Shown here piece by piece: positions 2,434 to 12,325 of a stretch of DNA of 12,686 nt (its first letter is position 1; the number at the start of each line of letters is the position of its first letter). The position numbers and the translations under genes were made by a program. The DNA is from a virus. Under the pieces are notes generated by a model. It saw only the letters and a list, made by a program, of their open reading frames with translations. It made no database searches and was not told the origin of the DNA. Location: UHGV virus genome UHGV-0141872; one strand, given 5' to 3'.

Positions 2434-3099
2434 TCACTTCGCCGTCTTTAACGCCTGTTCAAGCGCCACGCTCAGCTCCGTCTTCATGAGACGCGATGCC
2501 ATGTCGTGCGCCAGCGCCTGATAACCCAGTACCGGCGTGACCGGCAGTGCATCACCAAAACGTATCAACAGCTTTGGTGAAGGGCTTTTTTTGCGGGGAG
2601 CGCGTGTGCCATTGGGGGAGCGTTTTCTCCGCTTCCTGGTTTTTGCCACTTTTTTCGCTTTCTTACGCTGCCAGACGCCACCAACATCCTCACCATCGTT
2701 GTTCATCACCTTACCGATGAACACATCCGGTCTGGCCTTCAGCTGTTGCAGTTTTGCCTTTGGCAGGTTGCCGTATTTGTTCAGCCGGATATTTTTCGGG
2801 TTCAGTACAGCTTTCTGCCCCTCACCGAGATAATGCAGCCCGCCCACCTCAAAAGGTTCAAGGTAAGGCACGGCGGTATCCATGATGAACACCCGACCGG
2901 TAAGATTGTCCCTTGTTGCCCCTTTTGAGCGCACCGAGTTCACGGTGAACGGCGTCGGGTTATCCAGCTTCCGGCGAAGGTTTTCTTTCTCTGCCGCTTC
3001 AATTTTTCTCACCGTGGCGGTGATGGCGCGCGCAGTGGCAAAACGCACCTGTTTCTGCATCCCCTGAAGCTGTCTGTGAAGGTCATTAAGGTCAGCCAT
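2434..3099 (-). CDS. Hypothetical phage protein, 221 aa, basic with a Lys/Arg-rich low-complexity segment (KKAKKVAKTRKRRKRSPNGTRAPRKKSPSPK)
   Basis: ATG at 3099 preceded by AAGGTGGAATA (SD). Located between the lysis genes and cos (the lambda bor/moron position). Function not recognisable from sequence. A hairpin plus T-run follows the stop (about 2395-2432). Confidence 0.6.
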   Translation of the reverse strand: MADLNDLHRQLQGMQKQVRFATARAITATVRKIEAAEKENLRRKLDNPTPFTVNSVRSKGATRDNLTGRVFIMDTAVPYLEPFEVGGLHYLGEGQKAVLNPKNIRLNKYGNLPKAKLQQLKARPDVFIGKVMNNDGEDVGGVWQRKKAKKVAKTRKRRKRSPNGTRAPRKKSPSPKLLIRFGDALPVTPVLGYQALAHDMASRLMKTELSVALEQALKTAK

Positions 3100-3159
3100 T
3101 ATTCCACCTTCTCAAGCTGCATTATCGCAGCCCCTCACTGAAGGGCTGCTGTAATGCTG

Positions 3160-3459
3160 TTACTCAGTAACTACCGCACCTTCCGGTAATTCCATACCGG
3201 CAAATACCGGACAACCAGGATGACGCTCATCTTCTGTTGCTTCCAGCATTGACTGACCAAACCACTCCGTCGTGGCGCGACCATCAGCTGCTTTGTAGTG
3301 GATCAGGTACTGGTTTTCACCATCCGCATACTGCGCGCGGGCTTTAATCTCACCCCATTCATCACTGATGCGCATCTCCACCAGTTGAGACAACTCAAAC
3401 TTAAACGGAGCAGCATCAGCACCAATTACAAACGGTTTGTTTTCTGTTTTTTTCATCAT
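3160..3459 (-). CDS. Hypothetical acidic protein, ~99 aa (MMKKTENKPFVIGADAAPFKFELSQLVEMRISDEW...)
   Basis: The ORF-track frame starts at ATG 3507 with no SD; the internal ATG-ATG at 3459/3456 is preceded by CAGGAGACG (strong SD), so the shorter form is preferred. No family recognised. Confidence 0.55.
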   Translation of the reverse strand: MMKKTENKPFVIGADAAPFKFELSQLVEMRISDEWGEIKARAQYADGENQYLIHYKAADGRATTEWFGQSMLEATEDERHPGCPVFAGMELPEGAVVTE

Positions 3460-3630
3460 CGTCTCCTGATATCTAAGCCCGTCGCCGCACCGGGTACTGT
3501 TCAACATTTGAGTATTCGCGGCGACATAAAGAATTTATTTTATTGAATAACCACAAACGCAGAATTTCATGCTTTCCGGTCGCTGACGCACCCTTCATTT
3601 TTCAGCAAAATATTCTGCTCTTACAGGCGA

Positions 3631-3813
3631 TCAGTTCTGCAGACACTGCCGAACATCGTCGACAATTTCACAGACCTGAGAAGCTGTATCGAAAAGCTGG
3701 CGCGCTTTATCCAGGCTGACGCATCCCACCAGGAAAAAAGGCACCAGTATCGCTACCAGTGCCCATTTCACCGCCGCTCGCGGCATTCTGTGTGTCCAGT
3801 GTTTTCTGCTCAT
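3631..3813 (-). CDS. Small putative lipoprotein, 60 aa (signal peptide plus lipobox LVGC, ~27-aa mature part with 3 Cys); possible spanin-like or exclusion lipoprotein
   Basis: MSRKHWTHRMPRAAVKWALVAILVPFFLVGCVSLDKARQLFDTASQVCEIVDDVRQCLQN: positively charged n-region, hydrophobic core, L-V-G-C lipobox. ATG at 3813 preceded by CAGGTGGGTT. The ORF-track version starting at 3885 (inside the endolysin gene) has no SD. Confidence 0.4.
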   Translation of the reverse strand: MSRKHWTHRMPRAAVKWALVAILVPFFLVGCVSLDKARQLFDTASQVCEIVDDVRQCLQN

Positions 3814-3827
3814 AACCCACCTGGTTA

Positions 3828-4205
3828 TCAGCGTTTCAACTGAAAATGAGGTCCGTCTTTCAGTGTTTTCCAGTCGCCGCCCCATTCGATGGCAGTTCCC
3901 AGCTCTGCGGCAGCCTGCTTAAATGCCTGCGCGATTTTCTCGTACAGAGGCCAGTCCCATGACACCTGGCTGCCAATGTAGGCCACAACATCCACCGCAT
4001 CACCGGTCAGGTGGCGGCTGTTCATGGTCTGGCTTTTCCCTTCCGCGACCAGCTGTTTCTGGCGTTCTTTCGTGCGCAGCCCTTCCGTAATACCGAAATC
4101 AACCTCCGTCAGTTCAAGGGCGCGGCGAACGACAGCAACCAGCTGTGGTCTGACACCCTCCAGATTTTTCTCGCTCCGGCGGCTGAATCTGAATTTACCC
4201 GACAT
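3828..4205 (-). CDS. Endolysin, peptidase M15 family (VanY-like L-alanyl-D-glutamate / D-Ala-D-Ala peptidase type)
   Basis: Zn-peptidase M15 motifs SRHLTGDAVDV and DGPHFQL. ATG at 4205 preceded by GAGGTG; the ORF-track start at 4211 is GTG and overlaps the upstream stop. Follows two membrane-protein genes with overlapping stops and starts. Confidence 0.8.
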   Translation of the reverse strand: MSGKFRFSRRSEKNLEGVRPQLVAVVRRALELTEVDFGITEGLRTKERQKQLVAEGKSQTMNSRHLTGDAVDVVAYIGSQVSWDWPLYEKIAQAFKQAAAELGTAIEWGGDWKTLKDGPHFQLKR

Positions 4206-4207
4206 AT

Positions 4208-4483
4208 TCACCTCAACAATGGAAAGATTCTTGTGACGTTCCCGCGTGCGCGTATCACCAGCACGCAGAACAGCAGATTAAAAAACACCTCCAGCCAGCC
4301 CGTTGCTAACGGGCGACCACACAGATAGCTGAGGGGGGCAAAGGCATACAGCAGCATCAGCAGCCAGGCCAGCCATGACATCAGCGGTTTGTGTCTGGAG
4401 TCACGACGACGATAAAAAAAGAGCGTCAGCACGATAACCGTGCATAACGCCACATTCAGCAATCCGGGAAGGTTACTTAACAT
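4208..4483 (-). CDS. Small membrane protein, 91 aa, about 3 predicted TM segments; holin/antiholin-like lysis accessory protein
   Basis: Strong SD GGAGGAGG 5 nt before ATG at 4483. Start overlaps the stop of the upstream putative holin and its own stop overlaps the endolysin start (translational coupling). Hydrophobic segments LLNVALCTVIVLTLFF, LMSWLAWLLMLLYAFAPLSYL, WLEVFFNLLFCVLVI. Confidence 0.55.
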   Translation of the reverse strand: MLSNLPGLLNVALCTVIVLTLFFYRRRDSRHKPLMSWLAWLLMLLYAFAPLSYLCGRPLATGWLEVFFNLLFCVLVIRARGNVTRIFPLLR

Positions 4484-4865
4484 TACCGCCTCCTCCGCCC
4501 CGCAGGCGCGAGAACAGGCCAGACACCAGTGATGCGATATCCTGCTGGTGGATGAATGACATAATCTTTACAGACACCAGCGATACCAGCACCGCACACA
4601 ATGCATCTGCAGATGTGCCGTCATAACCAGTTTTTGATGCCACCCAGGCTGAAAGCAAACGCGCACCCAGCACGCCGACGATAAATGACACAAGAAAATG
4701 TGCCGCCACCCGCCATGCTGAAAGCGCCTGCGGTATCGTTGCAACAAACAACGCCCCCGCAAATGCGCCAAACACAATCCCGAAATCCGTTCCGGTAAAC
4801 AGCCCGAAAACAGTCGCCCCACCGAGCGCAGCAGCTGTGCCGGAACCGGATAAGGGTTCAGACAT
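4473..4865 (-). CDS. Putative holin / lysis membrane protein, 130 aa, Gly-rich TM segments
   Basis: ATG at 4865 preceded by CAGGAGAAAAAGT (SD); the ORF-track start at 4922 is GTG inside a terminator hairpin and is unlikely. Multiple hydrophobic Gly/Ala-rich segments; first gene of the lysis cassette. Holin call is by position and hydropathy only. Confidence 0.5.
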   Translation of the reverse strand: MSEPLSGSGTAAALGGATVFGLFTGTDFGIVFGAFAGALFVATIPQALSAWRVAAHFLVSFIVGVLGARLLSAWVASKTGYDGTSADALCAVLVSLVSVKIMSFIHQQDIASLVSGLFSRLRGGGGGNVK

Positions 4866-4908
4866 ACTTTTTCTCCTGTAAATTAAAAAAGGCCACCAGC
4901 GGCCCCCC

Positions 4909-4957
4909 AAAAAAAACACCACACCAAAGACATCCGCAGATGCCTTTGTGTGGTGTT
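4909..4957 (-). terminator. Strong rho-independent terminator about 45 nt upstream of the holin start
   Basis: Minus strand reads AACACCACACAAAGG-catctgcggatg-TCTTTGGTGTGGTGTT followed by TTTTTTTT (about 14-bp stem with one bulge, U8 tract). A weaker GGCC...GGCC hairpin plus T-run follows at 4885-4904. Confidence 0.6.
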
Positions 4958-4994
4958 ATTCAGTTTTGATATGTATGGGACGTGGAGCGAATAC

Positions 4995-5049
4995 AAAAAA
5001 GGCCTGCCGGAGCAGACCTCAAAAAAAAGCCAGCACTGGGGGGGCTGGC
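4995..5049 (-). terminator. Tandem pair of rho-independent terminator hairpins
   Basis: Minus strand: GCCAGC-cccccagt-GCTGGC + TTTTTTTT (5021-5049), then GGUCUGC-uccg-GCAGGCC + TTTTTTGT (4995-5018). Confidence 0.5.
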
Positions 5050-5665
5050 AGGAAAGCAAACGTGCTTATCGGATTTTCAAAAAAAGAATATTACCTTTGC
5101 GTTAATCATCCTGGCCTTCCGAAGCACATTTCTCAACTGAAAACGGGTATTTTCAGATTTCGTTATCTGTCATATTGACAGGCCCCACTTCTCCGGGGTA
5201 GTGAAGTAAGTGGCGTTTGCTTCCTGTAAATGCCCGAGAGTTATCCATGATCTCTTGTATTAGGCATTCCTCAGTGGACTAATTTCGGAGTTATCATCCT
5301 GTTCAATTTCATCCAGGATCCCCTACTTAATAAGTTCATCATTCTTCAGGTGGCAGTTTCTTTCAGCCAGCCGTGCAAGCAACAGCACATTCTTGTCGGG
5401 CTCAGAATAACTCCTGCAAATGCAACAATGATGACCGTAGCACCAATAACCTTGAGCTGCCCGCATCCGTAAAAAGCGAAGGCCCCAAATTACCAGAATA
5501 AAACTGAGCAGATATCCGACCTTCGTTACCGCATGGACTTCATTGTCTCATACACCAGGAGCAGCAAATTGCAAAGGATGAAGCACGCCCCATGAAGATT
5601 CTCCCAAAACTATAATTGTAAAAACCAAAGTAGAGGAAGCGAACACTTGCAAACCCGAACGTTGA

Positions 5666-5693
5666 ATAAAAAAAACCGCCTGGAGCGGCGGTT
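5666..5693 (-). terminator. Rho-independent terminator downstream of the tRNA pair
   Basis: Minus strand: AACCGCC-gctcca-GGCGGTT followed by TTTTTTTTATT. Confidence 0.5.
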
Positions 5694-6046
5694 AATGGCA
5701 TATAAAAACGCATGATTTAATTGTATTCAGAAGTGTCGGGTACCTCCCGAAGCATCCAGCCCCACATGGATACTGTGGTTTCCCGCTAAACCGACTCTTT
5801 AAACCACCCTCGCACTGAGGAACACCTCTGTAGTGTTTTTACAACACCGGGATAGTGCATCATCAGCCCTGCCAGGAAATACTAAATCTCCACCGATAAT
5901 GCACTATTCCATTGTTGTAAAAAATCAGCACTGAGGCTATAACCGACCTCAAACAATAGCCTGAGGACCAAAGATGTCTTAAAACAACCTGCCCCCACGT
6001 AAAAAAACACGCCAGTGCTGTATAATTCGTGTTGCCAGAATAATGA

Positions 6047-6121
<75 letters not shown>

Positions 6122-6124
6122 ATA

Positions 6125-6200
<76 letters not shown>

Positions 6201-6365
6201 ATTGGTTCCTCAGGTGTGGATGAGATGCCCGGATACATAAATTACCCTCCCTTGGAACCGATGAAGAATAATAATGAATTTCGTTCTTGTTTCAATACAA
6301 ACAATGTCAGGTATTTAAAACATAATTATACAATATTATAAAAATTAAAAAGTTCGCAAAAAAAG

Positions 6366-7412
6366 CTAACTATTGTTTCTTATTTCATCAAACGTTTGAT
6401 TAAACCTATCCTTTTCCAGCTCTACGCCAATAGCTCTACGTCCCAGAGAGAGCGCAGCCTTTATAGTCGCCCCCGATCCCATAAAAAAGTCTGCAACCAA
6501 TTCCCCCGGACGACTGCTGGCTATAATTATCTGCCGCAACATATCCGCTGGTTTCTCACACGGATGTTTACCCGGATAATACTGCACAGGTTTGTGCGCC
6601 CAGACATCCGTATAAGGAACGGCAGCCGATACGGAAAAGTAACGCCGCAGGGATTTGTACTCCTCTAGCAGGCTGGCATATTGTCGGTTCAGTTCGCTGT
6701 ATGTGCTGACCAGCTGGTGGTGTGGCTGTTCCAGTTCACCGCGCTGATGTTTTTCTGCTGCAACACGCGCAAACAACGCCTGCAGTTTTCTGTAATCAAC
6801 CTCATTCGGCAACTGCCACTGACTGGCACCAAACCAGTGTGAAGCCATGTTTTTCTTTCCGGTGGCTTCCGCTATCTGTTTTGATGTTATCCCCAGTGAT
6901 ACACGCGCATCACGAAAGTAAGAAATCAGCGGGGCCATGACGTGCTGTTTAAGCTTGCGCCCCTGTGCCGCATAGCCGTCATTTTTGGGCTGGTATGGCC
7001 CCTGATAATGTTCTGCAAACAGAATGCGTTCTGTTGCCGGGAAATACGCCCGCAGGCTTTCCTTGTTGCATCCGTTCCAGCGTCCGGACGGCTTCGCCCA
7101 GATAATGTGGTTCAGCACATTAAAGCGCTCACGCATCATGATTTCGATATCAGATGCCAGGCGATGACCACAGAACAGGTAGAGACTTCCGGCAGGTTTC
7201 AGTACCCGCCAGAACTGCGCCAGACACTGGTCCAGCCAATTCAGGTAATCATCGTCGCCCCTCCACTGGTTATCCCAGCCTTCGGGTTTCACTTTAAAGT
7301 ATGGAGGGTCTGTGACTATCAAATCGACAGAGTTTTCCGGTAAGGTCTGGATAAATTCCAGGCAATCAGCGTTGATTAACTCACAACTGGATATTTTTAC
7401 AGTGTAAACCAT
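6366..7412 (-). CDS. DNA amino-methyltransferase (N6-adenine or N4-cytosine), beta-class, orphan (no restriction enzyme partner in the window)
   Basis: Catalytic motif IV DPPY (LIVTDPPYF) near the N-terminus and AdoMet-binding motif I FxGxG (ADFFMGSGAT) near the C-terminus, the beta-class motif order. 348 aa; ATG at 7412. Confidence 0.85.
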   Translation of the reverse strand: MVYTVKISSCELINADCLEFIQTLPENSVDLIVTDPPYFKVKPEGWDNQWRGDDDYLNWLDQCLAQFWRVLKPAGSLYLFCGHRLASDIEIMMRERFNVLNHIIWAKPSGRWNGCNKESLRAYFPATERILFAEHYQGPYQPKNDGYAAQGRKLKQHVMAPLISYFRDARVSLGITSKQIAEATGKKNMASHWFGASQWQLPNEVDYRKLQALFARVAAEKHQRGELEQPHHQLVSTYSELNRQYASLLEEYKSLRRYFSVSAAVPYTDVWAHKPVQYYPGKHPCEKPADMLRQIIIASSRPGELVADFFMGSGATIKAALSLGRRAIGVELEKDRFNQTFDEIRNNS

Positions 7413-7549
7413 AGATCAATAAGCACTTCTCTGATAGGCTCATTCCGCTTTTGCGCAAAGCAGATGGGCCTGAGGTTTGCTTGTGACCCCAACGCATGAG
7501 CAGATGGCTGGCAGGTGCCGCTAACACCCACCAGCCGCCCATCACCACA

Positions 7550-9476: not shown

Positions 9477-9752
9477 CTACTCGTCGTCTATGAGTAGTCC
9501 GGCATGCGTCAGCGCATCCAGTGGCGCTTTCAACAGGTTGTCCAGGTCACGACGGCGCTTATCCGGTGGCTCCACAATAATCCTGATCGCCAGCTTTTCG
9601 GACAGGTTTAATTTCAGTCGCTGCTGGCTAACAACTAGCGCTACATCACGGCAATAACGCTTTCCTGCTTCCGAGATGAAATACGTATTGCCATGACGTC
9701 GCCAGTAGGTATTCACCGTCGGCGGGTAAGGCAAAACAAACTCTATACGCAT
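9477..9752 (-). CDS. rusA: RusA-like Holliday junction resolvase, truncated at 91 aa by an in-frame TAG; the frame continues to 9381 encoding the expected RusA C-terminus
   Basis: RRRDLDNL and LIDD motifs (RusA catalytic Asp cluster). The TAG at 9479..9477 falls where E. coli RusA has Gln (CAG); downstream in-frame FDGINIVRGLPICGGRLGVNI aligns with RusA [21 protein letters not shown]. ATG at 9752 preceded by AAAGAGGTTACTG. Confidence 0.7.
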   Translation of the reverse strand: MRIEFVLPYPPTVNTYWRRHGNTYFISEAGKRYCRDVALVVSQQRLKLNLSEKLAIRIIVEPPDKRRRDLDNLLKAPLDALTHAGLLIDDE

Positions 9753-9764
9753 CAGTAACCTCTT

Positions 9765-10814
9765 TTACCCAAGCACGCCGGTTGCAAAGGCGTGATCAAG
9801 AAAACCAAAAATTAAATCAACCTGGGAACCATGCTTTTCTTCGAACGCCTGCGGATCTGCATGAAGTTCGTTGTGATGTTCCCGACACAGCGGCAACGTA
9901 AAAATATCGTGGGCTTTTGTCCCCATCCCGCCCTGACCGTGACCAATCAGGTGATGGGGATCGTCTGCTGGCTTACCACAACACGTACACGGCTGTGTCT
10001 TCACCCAGCGCGTATATTTCTCATTTACCCAACGGCGACGTTTAGGCCGCCTCATGAAAGATTCCGGTGACTCCGGATCAACGGTGATGCTGACCACCGT
10101 CTTTTCCTGTAGTGGGTTTTGTTGCTGGTGGGCGTGATATGGCTGCACAAGATTTTTTGTGCGCTGCTTCAGTACGCTGGTGGCTGTCTGCTCTCCCGGT
10201 ATGATTTCGCTTTCGCGGTACACCGAGCGGATTTTTTCCGCACGCAATCCCAGAGAACGACGTAATACTGCCTCCGGAAGCGCGTCCGCCACTTGATTGC
10301 AGACCGCCCACCAAGATAATTCAGCTAGCGATAACTCTCGCTCCTGTGTGCCATTCATTGCATGACGGATGACGTCAATCATCCATGCTGACAAGTTTTG
10401 GTGAGCTAGTAGCCCGAGTGATTCGGAGGTCTGGTCACGCAACTGGTTGTCGCAGTGCCAGCACAACACCATCGCGCCAGAGTCATAACGGTGAATGACG
10501 GTTTCACTGTGGTGATAATCGCCGTGTGGCCACTGGCAGGATTTAACATGGCGCAGTAACCAGTGAGACAATGCGCCAGCGCCACCAGCAGCACGAATCA
10601 CTCGTTCGTCGCTGAAAAATGACAGTAATGATTTATCCTCCGCCAGCGGCTGGCGAACGGCAGGGACGACTCCGGACGGCAGACCGAGCATGCTTTTCGG
10701 TTCCGGCTCCACCAGCACTCGAGGATTGTGAAATACCTTCATGGATTCACGACCTGGCTTAAGGACCACCAGCCCGAGTTCCGGTACCAGAACAGGTCGA
10801 AGTAATACCCGCAC
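9765..10814 (-). CDS. DUF968-like lambdoid nin-region protein (YdfU-like) with C-terminal HNH-like Cys/His motif, 349 aa
   Basis: C-terminal CTCCGKPADDPHHLIGHG...LCREHHNELH zinc-finger/HNH-like pattern. Size and position (just upstream of rusA and Q) match my recollection of E. coli Qin YdfU. GTG start at 10814 preceded by GGAGGTAAC; an internal ATG (MKVFHN...) is an alternative. Confidence 0.5.
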   Translation of the reverse strand: MRVLLRPVLVPELGLVVLKPGRESMKVFHNPRVLVEPEPKSMLGLPSGVVPAVRQPLAEDKSLLSFFSDERVIRAAGGAGALSHWLLRHVKSCQWPHGDYHHSETVIHRYDSGAMVLCWHCDNQLRDQTSESLGLLAHQNLSAWMIDVIRHAMNGTQERELSLAELSWWAVCNQVADALPEAVLRRSLGLRAEKIRSVYRESEIIPGEQTATSVLKQRTKNLVQPYHAHQQQNPLQEKTVVSITVDPESPESFMRRPKRRRWVNEKYTRWVKTQPCTCCGKPADDPHHLIGHGQGGMGTKAHDIFTLPLCREHHNELHADPQAFEEKHGSQVDLIFGFLDHAFATGVLG

Positions 10815-11628: not shown

Positions 11629-11784
11629 TTACTCCTCAGGTTCGTAAGCTGTGAAGACAGCGACCTCCGTCTGGCCGGTTCAGATTCGTACCTCGCAGAG
11701 GTCTTTCCTCGTTACCAGTGCCGTCACTATGACGGTTAAACAGATGACGATCAGGGCGATTAACATCGCCTTTTGCTGCTTCAT
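11629..11784 (-). pseudogene. hokD: hok-family type I toxin gene (HokD/RelF-like) interrupted by an in-frame TGA at codon 35
   Basis: Translation MKQQKAMLIALIVICLTVIVTALVTRKDLCEVRI*TGQTEVAVFTAYEPEE matches my recollection of E. coli HokD (51 aa) except that the Arg codon is TGA (11682..11680). SD AAGGAG lies 9 nt upstream of ATG at 11784. Confidence 0.6.
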
Positions 11785-11900
11785 AGCCTGCTTCTCCTTG
11801 CCTTTCGGCACGTAAGAGGCTAACCTACATGTGTCTAGCATGAAATTGGCCTCAGATTAATGTTAAGCGTCTTGCAGGACGCGTAATGTTAACTGGGGCT
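11785..11900. promoter_or_regulatory. hok mRNA leader / mok-overlap region; expected location of the antisense Sok RNA and its promoter (plus strand)
   Basis: Inferred from the canonical hok/sok architecture (antisense RNA complementary to the leader of the toxin mRNA). An in-frame upstream ATG (MLDTCRLASYVPKGKEKQA...) is present in the leader. Exact Sok boundaries cannot be set from sequence alone. Confidence 0.3.
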
Positions 11901-11995
11901 TTTCTCTATCTGCCGTTGGTGTTCATGCCCGAGGCAGATAGCCTCAAGCACCCGCAGCCATTCTACTTAACTACCGCTACCTCGCCAATATGAAA

Positions 11996-12085: not shown

Positions 12086-12325
12086 CACAACCTCCTGTAT
12101 TGGACGTACACCAGTCCTGATGAATATGAGGCTATCTCGTCAGTGATTCAATACAACTATTGGGTATAGTTTCTCTGATTTTTTCTGTGGTAATGGGGCA
12201 CAACCACTAGTCACCACCAGCACTTCTTTTAATACGCAAAGTCCGCCACAAGCTAACCCCCTAGTCCGCTTTGAGCGAACAGCGGACGTTGGCCGACCGC
12301 TCTTAGCGGCAAACGCCACCAAATG

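Follow-up and report, generated by a model that had tools for sequence, protein, structure and literature searches.

A tRNA-linked structured RNA family and a modular array of terminators upstream of the lysis genes in an Escherichia lambdoid prophage

The virus genome UHGV-0141872, whose whole 12,686-nucleotide (nt) stretch is referred to here as the window, contains between its tRNA genes and its lysis genes an interval (4885-6040) that forms part of a lambdoid prophage's late region. Every gene in the window is encoded on the minus strand. The principal finding is that this interval houses an unannotated structured RNA of about 357 nt (6023-5667, minus strand), hereafter the trailer RNA, which ends in the terminator T_A and represents a covariation-supported, tRNA-linked RNA family of Escherichia prophages. 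The interval as a whole is best explained as a mosaic of three independently mobile modules (A, B, and C), each equipped with its own terminator or terminators, and we consider this explanation, taken in all its parts, to be probable. It builds on the observed anatomy, conservation, and covariation of the RNA, on the modularity of the interval, and on a pseudogene inside it. The original prediction, made without database searches, had described a region poor in open reading frames (ORFs) and packed with terminators, and had offered two readings: a terminator stack that keeps the lysis genes silent until the antiterminator Q acts, or short non-coding RNAs (ncRNAs) of roughly 100 and 600 nt. It had also singled out positions 5700-6040 as especially unexplained, and that segment did turn out to be special, being a conserved structured RNA with covariation support.

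The structural evidence starts from the segment 6046-5660, which folds with a minimum free energy (MFE) of -136.5 kcal/mol (z=-4.8). A motif scan of IMG/VR, cleared of nine chance hits, yielded 64 unique homologues, and 30 representatives sharing less than 97% identity were folded jointly with RNAalifold. The consensus comprises 69 pairs in 11 helices, arranged as three domains followed by a linker and T_A, the latter being kept at the end of the family alignment as helix 11. Across the 30 sequences, 96.3% of cells are paired. Double-sided changes affect 19 of the 69 pairs, compared with 12.3 +/- 1.9 in shuffled alignments (0/500 reach 19), and the number of such pairs drops to 5-10 when partners are slid by 1-3 columns, a control that keeps the relatedness of the sequences. 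Double-change cells likewise exceed expectation (81 vs 28 +/- 4.6 in shuffles), as does the covariation score (0.239 vs 0.173). Clear compensations include CG:16/UA:13 in the closing stem of the third domain, AU:18/GC:11 in the second domain, and GC:19/AU:7 in helix 9. The trailer RNA thus shows compensatory changes beyond the controls, as expected of a structured ncRNA.

Each domain contributes differently to this picture. Domain 1 (D1; 6020-5926, minus strand) is branched in the MFE fold, closed by GCACUG/CAGUGC, and followed by a conserved run of six to seven U; its helices 1-3 carry compensatory changes in 8 of 15 pairs. A terminator-like hairpin was also flagged at 5952-5931, before this U-run. 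Domain 2 (D2; 5921-5838, minus strand) is a long hairpin of about 84 nt with a nearly invariant apex (GGUGGAGAUUUuGUAUUUCCUGGCAGGG). Five of the 23 pairs in its helices 4-5 changed on both sides, and its unpaired positions are as conserved as the paired ones (0.90 vs 0.87). Domain 3 (D3; 5828-5730, minus strand) is a multi-branched junction in which a closing stem and four hairpins form helices 6-10. Indels of 1, 4, and 13 nt occur inside D2-D3, the most conserved part, and therefore argue that the trailer region is non-coding. A pseudoknot between the helix-7 loop (CAGUGCG) and the 5' strand of D1 (GCACUG) was dropped as a candidate, the central loop base varying freely. R1, a covariance model of the whole trailer RNA, also matches the plus strand over D2 (5836-5917, 27 bits), which we take to be a symmetry artefact of the near-palindromic hairpin and not an antisense gene.

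The trailer RNA is widespread in Escherichia coli. A match was found in 424 of 5426 complete genomes (about 8%), 217 of which hold at least 80% of its length, with up to five copies per genome and 40 plasmid places. It is kept at 70-98% identity over hundreds of genomes, and the annotation beneath it is 'none' in nearly all of the matches listed. Only two GenBank phages carry it, the strict pattern was matched in Escherichia ruysiae only among one-per-species genomes, and a literature search with three conserved motifs of the RNA gave no match. In the closest complete E. coli genomes (E24377A and five others, about 93-95% identical), the stretch from tRNA-Gly to the holin is without annotation; the window has an all but identical counterpart in an IMG/VR metagenome contig (L047). 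Prophages of this type are present in E24377A at 1437390-1439074 of NC_009801 and in E. coli 042 at 1549666-1550811 of NC_017626. Phage vB_EcoS-683R6 has a 'hypothetical protein' annotated over its homologous segment (ON470595.1, 31832-32146), probably a spurious gene call, given the non-coding indels of the family.

Searches with R1 added further members, namely a copy on an IncF plasmid, a copy on p1303_109, and a variant without the interior of D3. The plasmid copies (p04IncF, L120, 2316-2768; p1303_109, L119, 2447-2741) lie among insertion sequence remnants, one of them after a 'tRNA-OTHER' gene and before a DMT transporter gene. The variant (83.5 bits) occurs in E. coli 2015C-4136CT1 (L008, 2400-2670) after a four-tRNA array (Ile, Arg, Thr, Gly); a short hairpin replaces the D3 interior and the D2 apex differs, from which it follows that domains are exchangeable. 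D2 alone (positions 101-209 of the trailer query) was seen in some genomes, among them porcine enterotoxigenic E. coli and bovine strains (H122-H125), and D1-D2 or D2-D3 fragments were seen in others.

The position of the RNA relative to tRNA genes is strikingly constant. In the window it follows tRNA-Thr (UGU; 6200-6125) and tRNA-Gly (UCC; 6121-6047), both on the minus strand, found by ARAGORN, and scoring 69.8 and 65.6 bits, respectively, with the Rfam tRNA model. Linkage was counted over about 100 family copies with sufficient upstream sequence. The distance from the end of the last tRNA to the D3 motif is 216-234 nt in 97 of the 103 copies that have an upstream tRNA; six further copies lie about 800-820 nt from the last tRNA, and five copies are without a tRNA. 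The last tRNA mostly belongs to a Thr(UGU)-Gly(UCC) array (72 copies); in other copies it is Arg(UCU) or Lys(UUU), or it closes a longer array. The downstream neighbor, on the other hand, varies and can be a pseudogene, TerB, a holin, a DMT transporter, or an unrelated gene.

A sigma-70-like promoter, TTGAAA-16-TATTAT (6295-6268, minus strand; 10/12 match), is located about 67 nt upstream of tRNA-Thr. Similar promoters (TTGAAA or TTGCGA, 16-nt spacer, TATTAT or TATCAT) precede the first tRNA by 61-67 nt in most of 49 unique upstream regions. By analogy with 'pT' of phage 933W, this is the presumptive promoter of the tRNA/RNA unit. The fixed distance to the tRNA, the upstream promoter, and the varying downstream neighbor together identify the RNA as the trailer of the tRNA operon and not the leader of the next gene. 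With the last tRNA immediately before it, the operon terminator at its end, and no promoter-like site within it, the RNA occupies the position typical of a 3' external transcribed spacer (3'ETS). Module A is accordingly described as a self-contained unit of promoter, tRNA-Thr, tRNA-Gly, structured RNA of about 357 nt, and T_A.

BLAST comparisons split the interval into modules that map to different sets of relatives. Prophages whose Q and lysis genes differ share module A (6214-5664, minus strand), with the tRNAs and about 380 nt up to T_A, at 78-84% identity. Module B (5663-~5005, minus strand) contains a pseudogene and the terminators T_B1 and T_B2, and module C (~4984-4877, minus strand) contains T_C1 and T_C2. 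A and C occur together in nearly all family loci (about 100 from IMG/VR and RefSeq), and the gap between them takes discrete values of 39, 68-76, 245-272, 670-673 (the window), 741-754, or 935 nt. This spacing marks a cargo slot, whose contents range from TerB and DUF3927 in one strain and an intact 164-aa gene in another to a pseudogene in the window and nothing in the shortest forms. In phage SerU-LTIIb, an LT-IIb toxin phage (L001), the tRNA/structured-RNA/holin unit occurs twice in tandem (1110-2461 and 3027-4199), and the two copies differ in their first tRNA, Arg in one and Thr in the other.

The cargo of the window is a moron in decay: positions ~5560-5153 (minus strand) contain what remains of a gene for a 164-aa hypothetical membrane protein (WP_021560133.1-like, phrog_6315), now a pseudogene. 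In tblastn, WP_021560133.1 aligns at 5523-5188 with 36% identity over 121-124 aa (E ~1e-12), and the last codons of the pseudogene resume at 5178-5153. The copy is gapped, contains two in-frame stop codons, and changes frame in its transmembrane part; that of E24377A is likewise degenerate. An intact homologue is present in L008 (2706-3200; phrog_6315 E=2.4e-27), and the intact protein has no Pfam match. Window positions 5167-4964, including T_B1 and T_B2, are 85% identical to the 3' flank of that intact gene (L008, 3186-3390), and both terminators therefore came with the moron. Module B was found in only 16 E. coli genomes (complete in six, partial in ten) and had no match in 50,697 phage records. 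It is 89.5% conserved, compared with about 97-98% for its flanks, as expected for junk. Hence, module B resembles a moron in its variable presence among collinear relatives and in having its own terminator, whereas the gene itself is no longer intact. Remnants of DUF3927 or TerB were sought in module B by tblastn and none were found; only the last three DUF3927 codons survive, at the start of T_C1.

Several elements of the original prediction can be assessed at this point. Its statement that the interval is devoid of a convincing ORF is borne out, as none of the ORFs of at least 20 aa in 4850-6060 represents a credible gene and the longest cross tRNA or terminator sequence. As candidate genes, the small ORFs of the interval fail on conservation; for example, 1-nt indels in relatives disrupt a 25-aa ORF in D2/D3. 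A coding gene had been named as one observation that would speak against the prediction. No intact gene exists, and the remnant at ~5560-5153 shows that a gene was once present. The proposed ncRNA of about 600 nt does not stand, the corresponding stretch being the pseudogene. That of about 100 nt consists of terminator hairpins only, and 0 promoter-like sites fall in 4870-6046, where a scan for sigma-70-like promoters had 1.9 expected.

All five hairpin-plus-U-tract terminators of the minus strand were recovered, at the coordinates of the original prediction, in sequence and folding energies, with hairpins of -9.7 to -30.4 kcal/mol and tracts of U6-U8. Each combines a G+C-rich hairpin with a U-tract, as an intrinsic terminator does, and each is predicted from sequence and folding. 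T_A (5693-5666; AACCGCC-GCUCCA-GGCGGUU + U8; -12.4 kcal/mol) forms the 3' end of the tRNA/trailer-RNA unit. T_B1 (5049-5021; GCCAGC...GCUGGC + U8; -10.6 kcal/mol) and T_B2 (5020-4995; 9-bp stem + U6; -15.6 kcal/mol) lie in the 3' flank of the moron. T_C1 (4957-4909; ~20-bp hairpin + U8; -30.4 kcal/mol) and T_C2 (4908-4885; GGGCC-GCUGGU-GGCCC + U6; -9.7 kcal/mol) complete the series in module C. A pattern scan of 4870-6046 gave 5 hits at 4 distinct sites, all on the minus strand, vs 1.7 +/- 1.1 in shuffles, and detected no terminator on the plus strand. T_B1 and T_C1 exceed the loop and stem limits of the scan and come on top of its hits.

The tandem terminator of module C stands immediately before the holin gene (4877-4473 with its Shine-Dalgarno sequence AGGAG at 4877-4873, minus strand; ATG 4865; PF16931 E=1.1e-22), the first lysis gene 3' of the terminators. 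T_C2 ends 8 nt before the Shine-Dalgarno sequence, not about 45 nt as had been estimated for the last terminator, and instead of being the 'weaker' element of the series it is the best conserved of all. The pair T_C1 + T_C2 is conserved in 46 unique variants, with T_C2 nearly invariant. Module C precedes the same holin in relatives, and in the E. coli 042 type (L004) it precedes a different gene, annotated essD. Where DUF3927 is present, its stop codon falls at the first bases of T_C1; in L003, for example, the DUF3927 coding sequence ends at 4312 and module C homology begins at 4301. The window keeps only CTGAATAAC of DUF3927.

A Chi octamer (4900-4893) lies within T_C2 and forms its loop and 3' stem. 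It is kept in 40 of the 46 T_C2 variants; the other six alter a loop base and leave the hairpin intact. The window as a whole contains ten Chi octamers (GCTGGTGG), in both orientations, compared with 0.48 +/- 0.64 expected (0/200 shuffles reach 10), a density several-fold above that of the E. coli chromosome. They are located at 4544-4551, 6713-6720, 10124-10131, and 10176-10183 on the plus strand, and at 4893-4900, 7528-7535, 10582-10589, 10709-10716, 10766-10773, and 12214-12221 on the minus strand.

By analogy, the terminator stack appears to be ordinary lambdoid Q-read-through architecture, explained by modular acquisition. In the mechanism proposed here, the trailer RNA and the tRNAs would most likely share one transcript, started at the local promoter in lysogens and at the late promoter PR' after induction. 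Processing of the tRNA 3' end would most likely free the trailer RNA, whose three domains and terminator hairpin would stabilize the product. In the lysogen, T_A would end the tRNA/trailer unit, and leftover read-through or transcription from cargo promoters would be stopped by the cargo terminators and finally by T_C1/T_C2 at the ribosome-binding site (RBS) of the holin. Together, the terminators would keep transcripts begun at the tRNA and moron promoters out of the lysis genes. After induction, Q-modified polymerase starting at PR' may pass all of them and also two further terminators, at 7905-7890 and 7576-7559, which flank upstream morons.

The required components are encoded upstream. 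The Q antiterminator gene (9394-9020, minus strand; 124 aa) matches PF06530 over the whole profile (E=4.5e-51), and a promoter-like site at 8926-8898 (minus strand, 10/12 match) is a candidate for PR', about 4 kb upstream of the lysis genes. A qut site was not identified. A distance of 4 kb is no obstacle to Q-type antitermination. PR' is constitutively active yet terminated in lysogens, and Q permits read-through (PMC7547250). Both the early stop of PR' transcription in lysogens and the disregard of Q-modified polymerase for distant terminators are established in lambdoid and Stx phages (PMC7547250; annotation of 933W).

With regard to function, the closest known RNAs are STnc100 and the PasD RNAs. 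STnc100 is located 75 nt 3' of the stx2 operon in Stx2 phages of two Shiga toxin-producing E. coli strains (PMC12370729). PasD is an Hfq-dependent small RNA (sRNA; PMC8550237), and PasD1 and PasD2 of enteropathogenic E. coli (EPEC) have been reported as structural relatives of STnc100 (10.64898/2026.05.13.724894). At gathering thresholds, Rfam recognized only the two tRNAs and sok in the window and no family for the trailer RNA. Below threshold, STnc100 (RF02076) aligned over its full model at 5852-5662 with 20.6 bits and a compensated closing stem. The same model gave 41.4 bits for PasD2, 37.7 for PasD1, and 207.7 for the true 933W STnc100. In the reverse direction, the top match of R2, a model of D3 only, was the bona fide 933W STnc100 (19.7 bits, E ~3.5e-4 by rough calibration). 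R1 was also tried against STnc100 and PasD and gave no match beyond a 15-nt hairpin, and blastn of the trailer RNA against PasD1/PasD2 (= EcOnc13) gave no similarity. Other Rfam matches at E<=10 were set aside: miRNA-precursor matches reflect only the long D2 hairpin, and isrK, Hrs13, and anti-hemB matches cover only terminators.

STnc100 and D3 appear to share three features: the closing stem, the GUGCG-type loop of the first hairpin, and the last hairpin (CGGGAGGCACCCG), which is nearly the same in both. STnc100/PasD and the trailer RNA also agree in lying on the late-gene strand, in ending with a hairpin and U-tract, and in their late-region position, with Q and its tRNAs or cargo on one side and the lysis cassette on the other. 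Unlike STnc100/PasD, the trailer RNA is about twice as long, has the extra domains D1 and D2, and is joined to a tRNA array instead of following DUF3927 or an stx gene. The likeness appears reciprocal but weak, and on sequence and model scores the trailer RNA is not filed as an STnc100 member; D3 + T_A is probably a distant STnc100 relative to which D1 and D2 are additions. The trailer RNA would most likely act in trans, because D3, the U-rich linker, and the terminator resemble those of Hfq-binding STnc100/PasD. An Hfq-type sRNA role is suggested by this likeness and by the U-rich 3' end. The U8 terminator and the A/U-rich stretch upstream of it are compatible with such an sRNA and are not evidence of binding. 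However, the invariant loops, together with the poorly conserved linker, suggest specific protein or RNA partners.

Some observations weigh against this interpretation. The family was collected with a motif inside D3, which makes helix 7 invariant by construction and biases the sample of diversity. Common descent inflates significance measured against shuffles, an effect that the slid controls mitigate. The single-stranded linker, the expected seed site of an sRNA, is among the less conserved parts (0.80 mean identity) and does not fit a simple seed-pairing sRNA. The STnc100 gathering threshold of 47 bits is not reached at 20.6 bits, the closest E. coli relative scores 23.7, and PasD1/PasD2 were found by neither R1 nor R2. 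Given the lower conservation of module B, T_B1 and T_B2 may be vestigial. Co-transcription, processing, and stability are properties that we infer for the trailer RNA.

Alternative explanations differ in how well they accommodate these data. A tentative one regards the trailer RNA as more than a divergent Hfq sRNA of the STnc100 type, namely as a new class linked to tRNA arrays, a small enterobacterial counterpart of GOLLD and ROOL, whose invariant loops would bind a specific partner. Its function would be tied to the phage tRNAs through maturation, protection, or the countering of tRNA-targeting defenses, and STnc100 and PasD would be its reduced derivatives.

It is more doubtful that the trailer is a cis element of the tRNA operon only, serving as a platform for 3' processing, stability, or termination by protecting against 3' exonucleases or guiding RNase E/P. 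Such a role would suit the fixed position after the last tRNA, whichever tRNA that is, the strong terminator at the end, and the conserved U-run after D1 with its preceding terminator-like hairpin (5952-5931). However, an ordinary tRNA operon needs far less than a conserved structure of about 330 nt with several domains and nearly invariant loops, and the sub-domains (D2, D2-D3, D1-D2) persist apart from complete units, on plasmids and in other strains.

The idea of a purpose-built barrier, in which the whole interval would be one distal tR' array dependent on Q and everything else spacers, is unlikely. Five same-strand terminators do separate the tRNAs from the holin, Q is encoded upstream, and T_C1 and T_C2 are tightly conserved by the holin Shine-Dalgarno sequence. 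Yet the terminators sit in mobile modules of differing distribution, and some relatives have only T_A, T_C1, and T_C2, with 160-170 nt from T_A to the holin. Moreover, one supposed spacer (6023-5694) is over-conserved for a spacer and carries compensatory changes, and the other is the pseudogene. The Q-gated stack of the original prediction is compatible with its context (Q gene, promoter-like site about 4 kb upstream, and a 933W layout) and fails as a single designed unit, its terminators being in separate mobile modules and two of the five having come with a now-dead gene.

Finally, it is very improbable that 5700-6040 is a degraded coding gene or functionless relic whose structure is a by-product of recent descent: the adjoining segment is truly a pseudogene, one phage record has a 'hypothetical protein' over the homologous stretch, and related sequences can beat shuffles without structure, but the most conserved part tolerates indels of 1, 4, and 13 nt and has no conserved ORF, the 19 double-change pairs stand against 5-10 in relatedness-preserving slid controls, and the element persists in hundreds of genomes at 70-98% identity, compared with only 16 for the pseudogene.

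The three-module mosaic with its structured trailer RNA is embedded in a typical set of prophage genes. The minus-strand order is a sok/hok module, DUF968, Q, a CPBP-protease gene, a small ORF, a DNA methyltransferase (7412-6366, minus strand), tRNA-Thr, tRNA-Gly, and the interval, followed on its 3' side by two holins (the first from ATG 4865) and an M15 endolysin (Pfam). The closest relatives carry another Q allele: in E24377A, this place is taken by a 229-aa Q and a RusA gene. A 91-aa ORF (9477-9752, minus strand) lies upstream of Q in the window. The CPBP/Rce1-like intramembrane protease gene (PF02517; 8048-8866, minus strand) comes directly after the late-promoter candidate, with the terminator 7905-7890 next, and resembles a further moron of the late operon. 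A hok/sok type I toxin-antitoxin module is represented at the early end of the window by its sok antitoxin RNA (11779-11953, minus strand; RF01794, 115.3 bits).

These results bear on prophage biology in several ways. An RNA found in about 8% of complete genomes of E. coli, the best-annotated bacterium, has been left unannotated, and it shares the late-region slot in which Shiga toxin and other virulence cargo insert. If expressed in lysogens, the trailer RNA would join the prophage RNAs (STnc100, PasD, AsxR, AgvB, StxS) that link prophages to host regulation, and it may show the ancestry of STnc100 and PasD. The modular map would account for the pile-up of terminators before the lysis genes, as each cassette adds its own and Q neutralizes them at induction. 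Within this map, the conserved tandem terminator with Chi at the holin RBS is a candidate safeguard against leaky lysis.

Comparison with known systems places the window close to 933W (NC_000924), whose late region runs pR', terminators, pT, three tRNAs, terminator, stx2AB, STnc100, an esterase gene, and holin. Its annotation reads pR'-qut-terminators-pT-ileZ/argN/argO-terminator-stx2AB-...-S. Common to both is the general plan, in which Q precedes a late promoter (a candidate in the window), several rho-independent terminators, a tRNA array equipped with a promoter and terminator, a cargo slot, and the holin. The tRNAs of 933W are Ile, Arg, and Arg, whereas those of the window are Thr and Gly; the cargo of 933W is a toxin, whereas the cargo slot of the window holds a pseudogene and no toxin. 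The tRNA array of 933W ends in a bare terminator and that of the window in the 357-nt structured trailer. The tandem terminator right at the holin Shine-Dalgarno sequence is likewise a feature of the window, unlike 933W.

A second comparison concerns RNAs found near prophage holins or after tRNAs. PasA/PasC of EPEC and enterohaemorrhagic E. coli prophages are intergenic and located just upstream of the holin/lysozyme operon (10.64898/2026.05.13.724894), and table S6 of PMC8550237 places them antisense to the late genes. Their position near the holin resembles that of the interval, but the sequences are unrelated. PasA/PasC identity was rejected, as the one blastn match, 18 nt at 5038-5021, is terminator-like and falls on the opposite relative strand, sense to the holin. 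In prophage PP10 of E2348/69 (L123, 3558-3870), the sRNA candidate E2348C_2757.EST5UTR from RNA interaction by ligation and sequencing (RIL-seq) lies about 100 nt after a pseudogenic tRNA-Gly (PMC8550237, table S6). It is another Hfq-bound RNA right after a prophage tRNA; with no R1 match, it was discarded as a member of the trailer-RNA family and is not homologous to it.

A chromosomal RNA comparable to the trailer RNA is 3'ETS-leuZ of E. coli, a product of tRNA processing of about 50 nt that lies 3' of the last tRNA of its operon. Like 3'ETS-leuZ, the trailer RNA follows the last tRNA and carries the operon terminator, and its release by tRNA processing is predicted only. Unlike 3'ETS-leuZ, it is about 357 nt long, multi-domain, and prophage-borne. 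GOLLD and ROOL are large structured ncRNAs of phages and prophages, typically near tRNA genes. Their Rfam models gave no match at E<=10 in 4700-6400. The trailer RNA resembles them in adjoining phage tRNA genes, but it is much smaller, less ornate, and confined to Escherichia.

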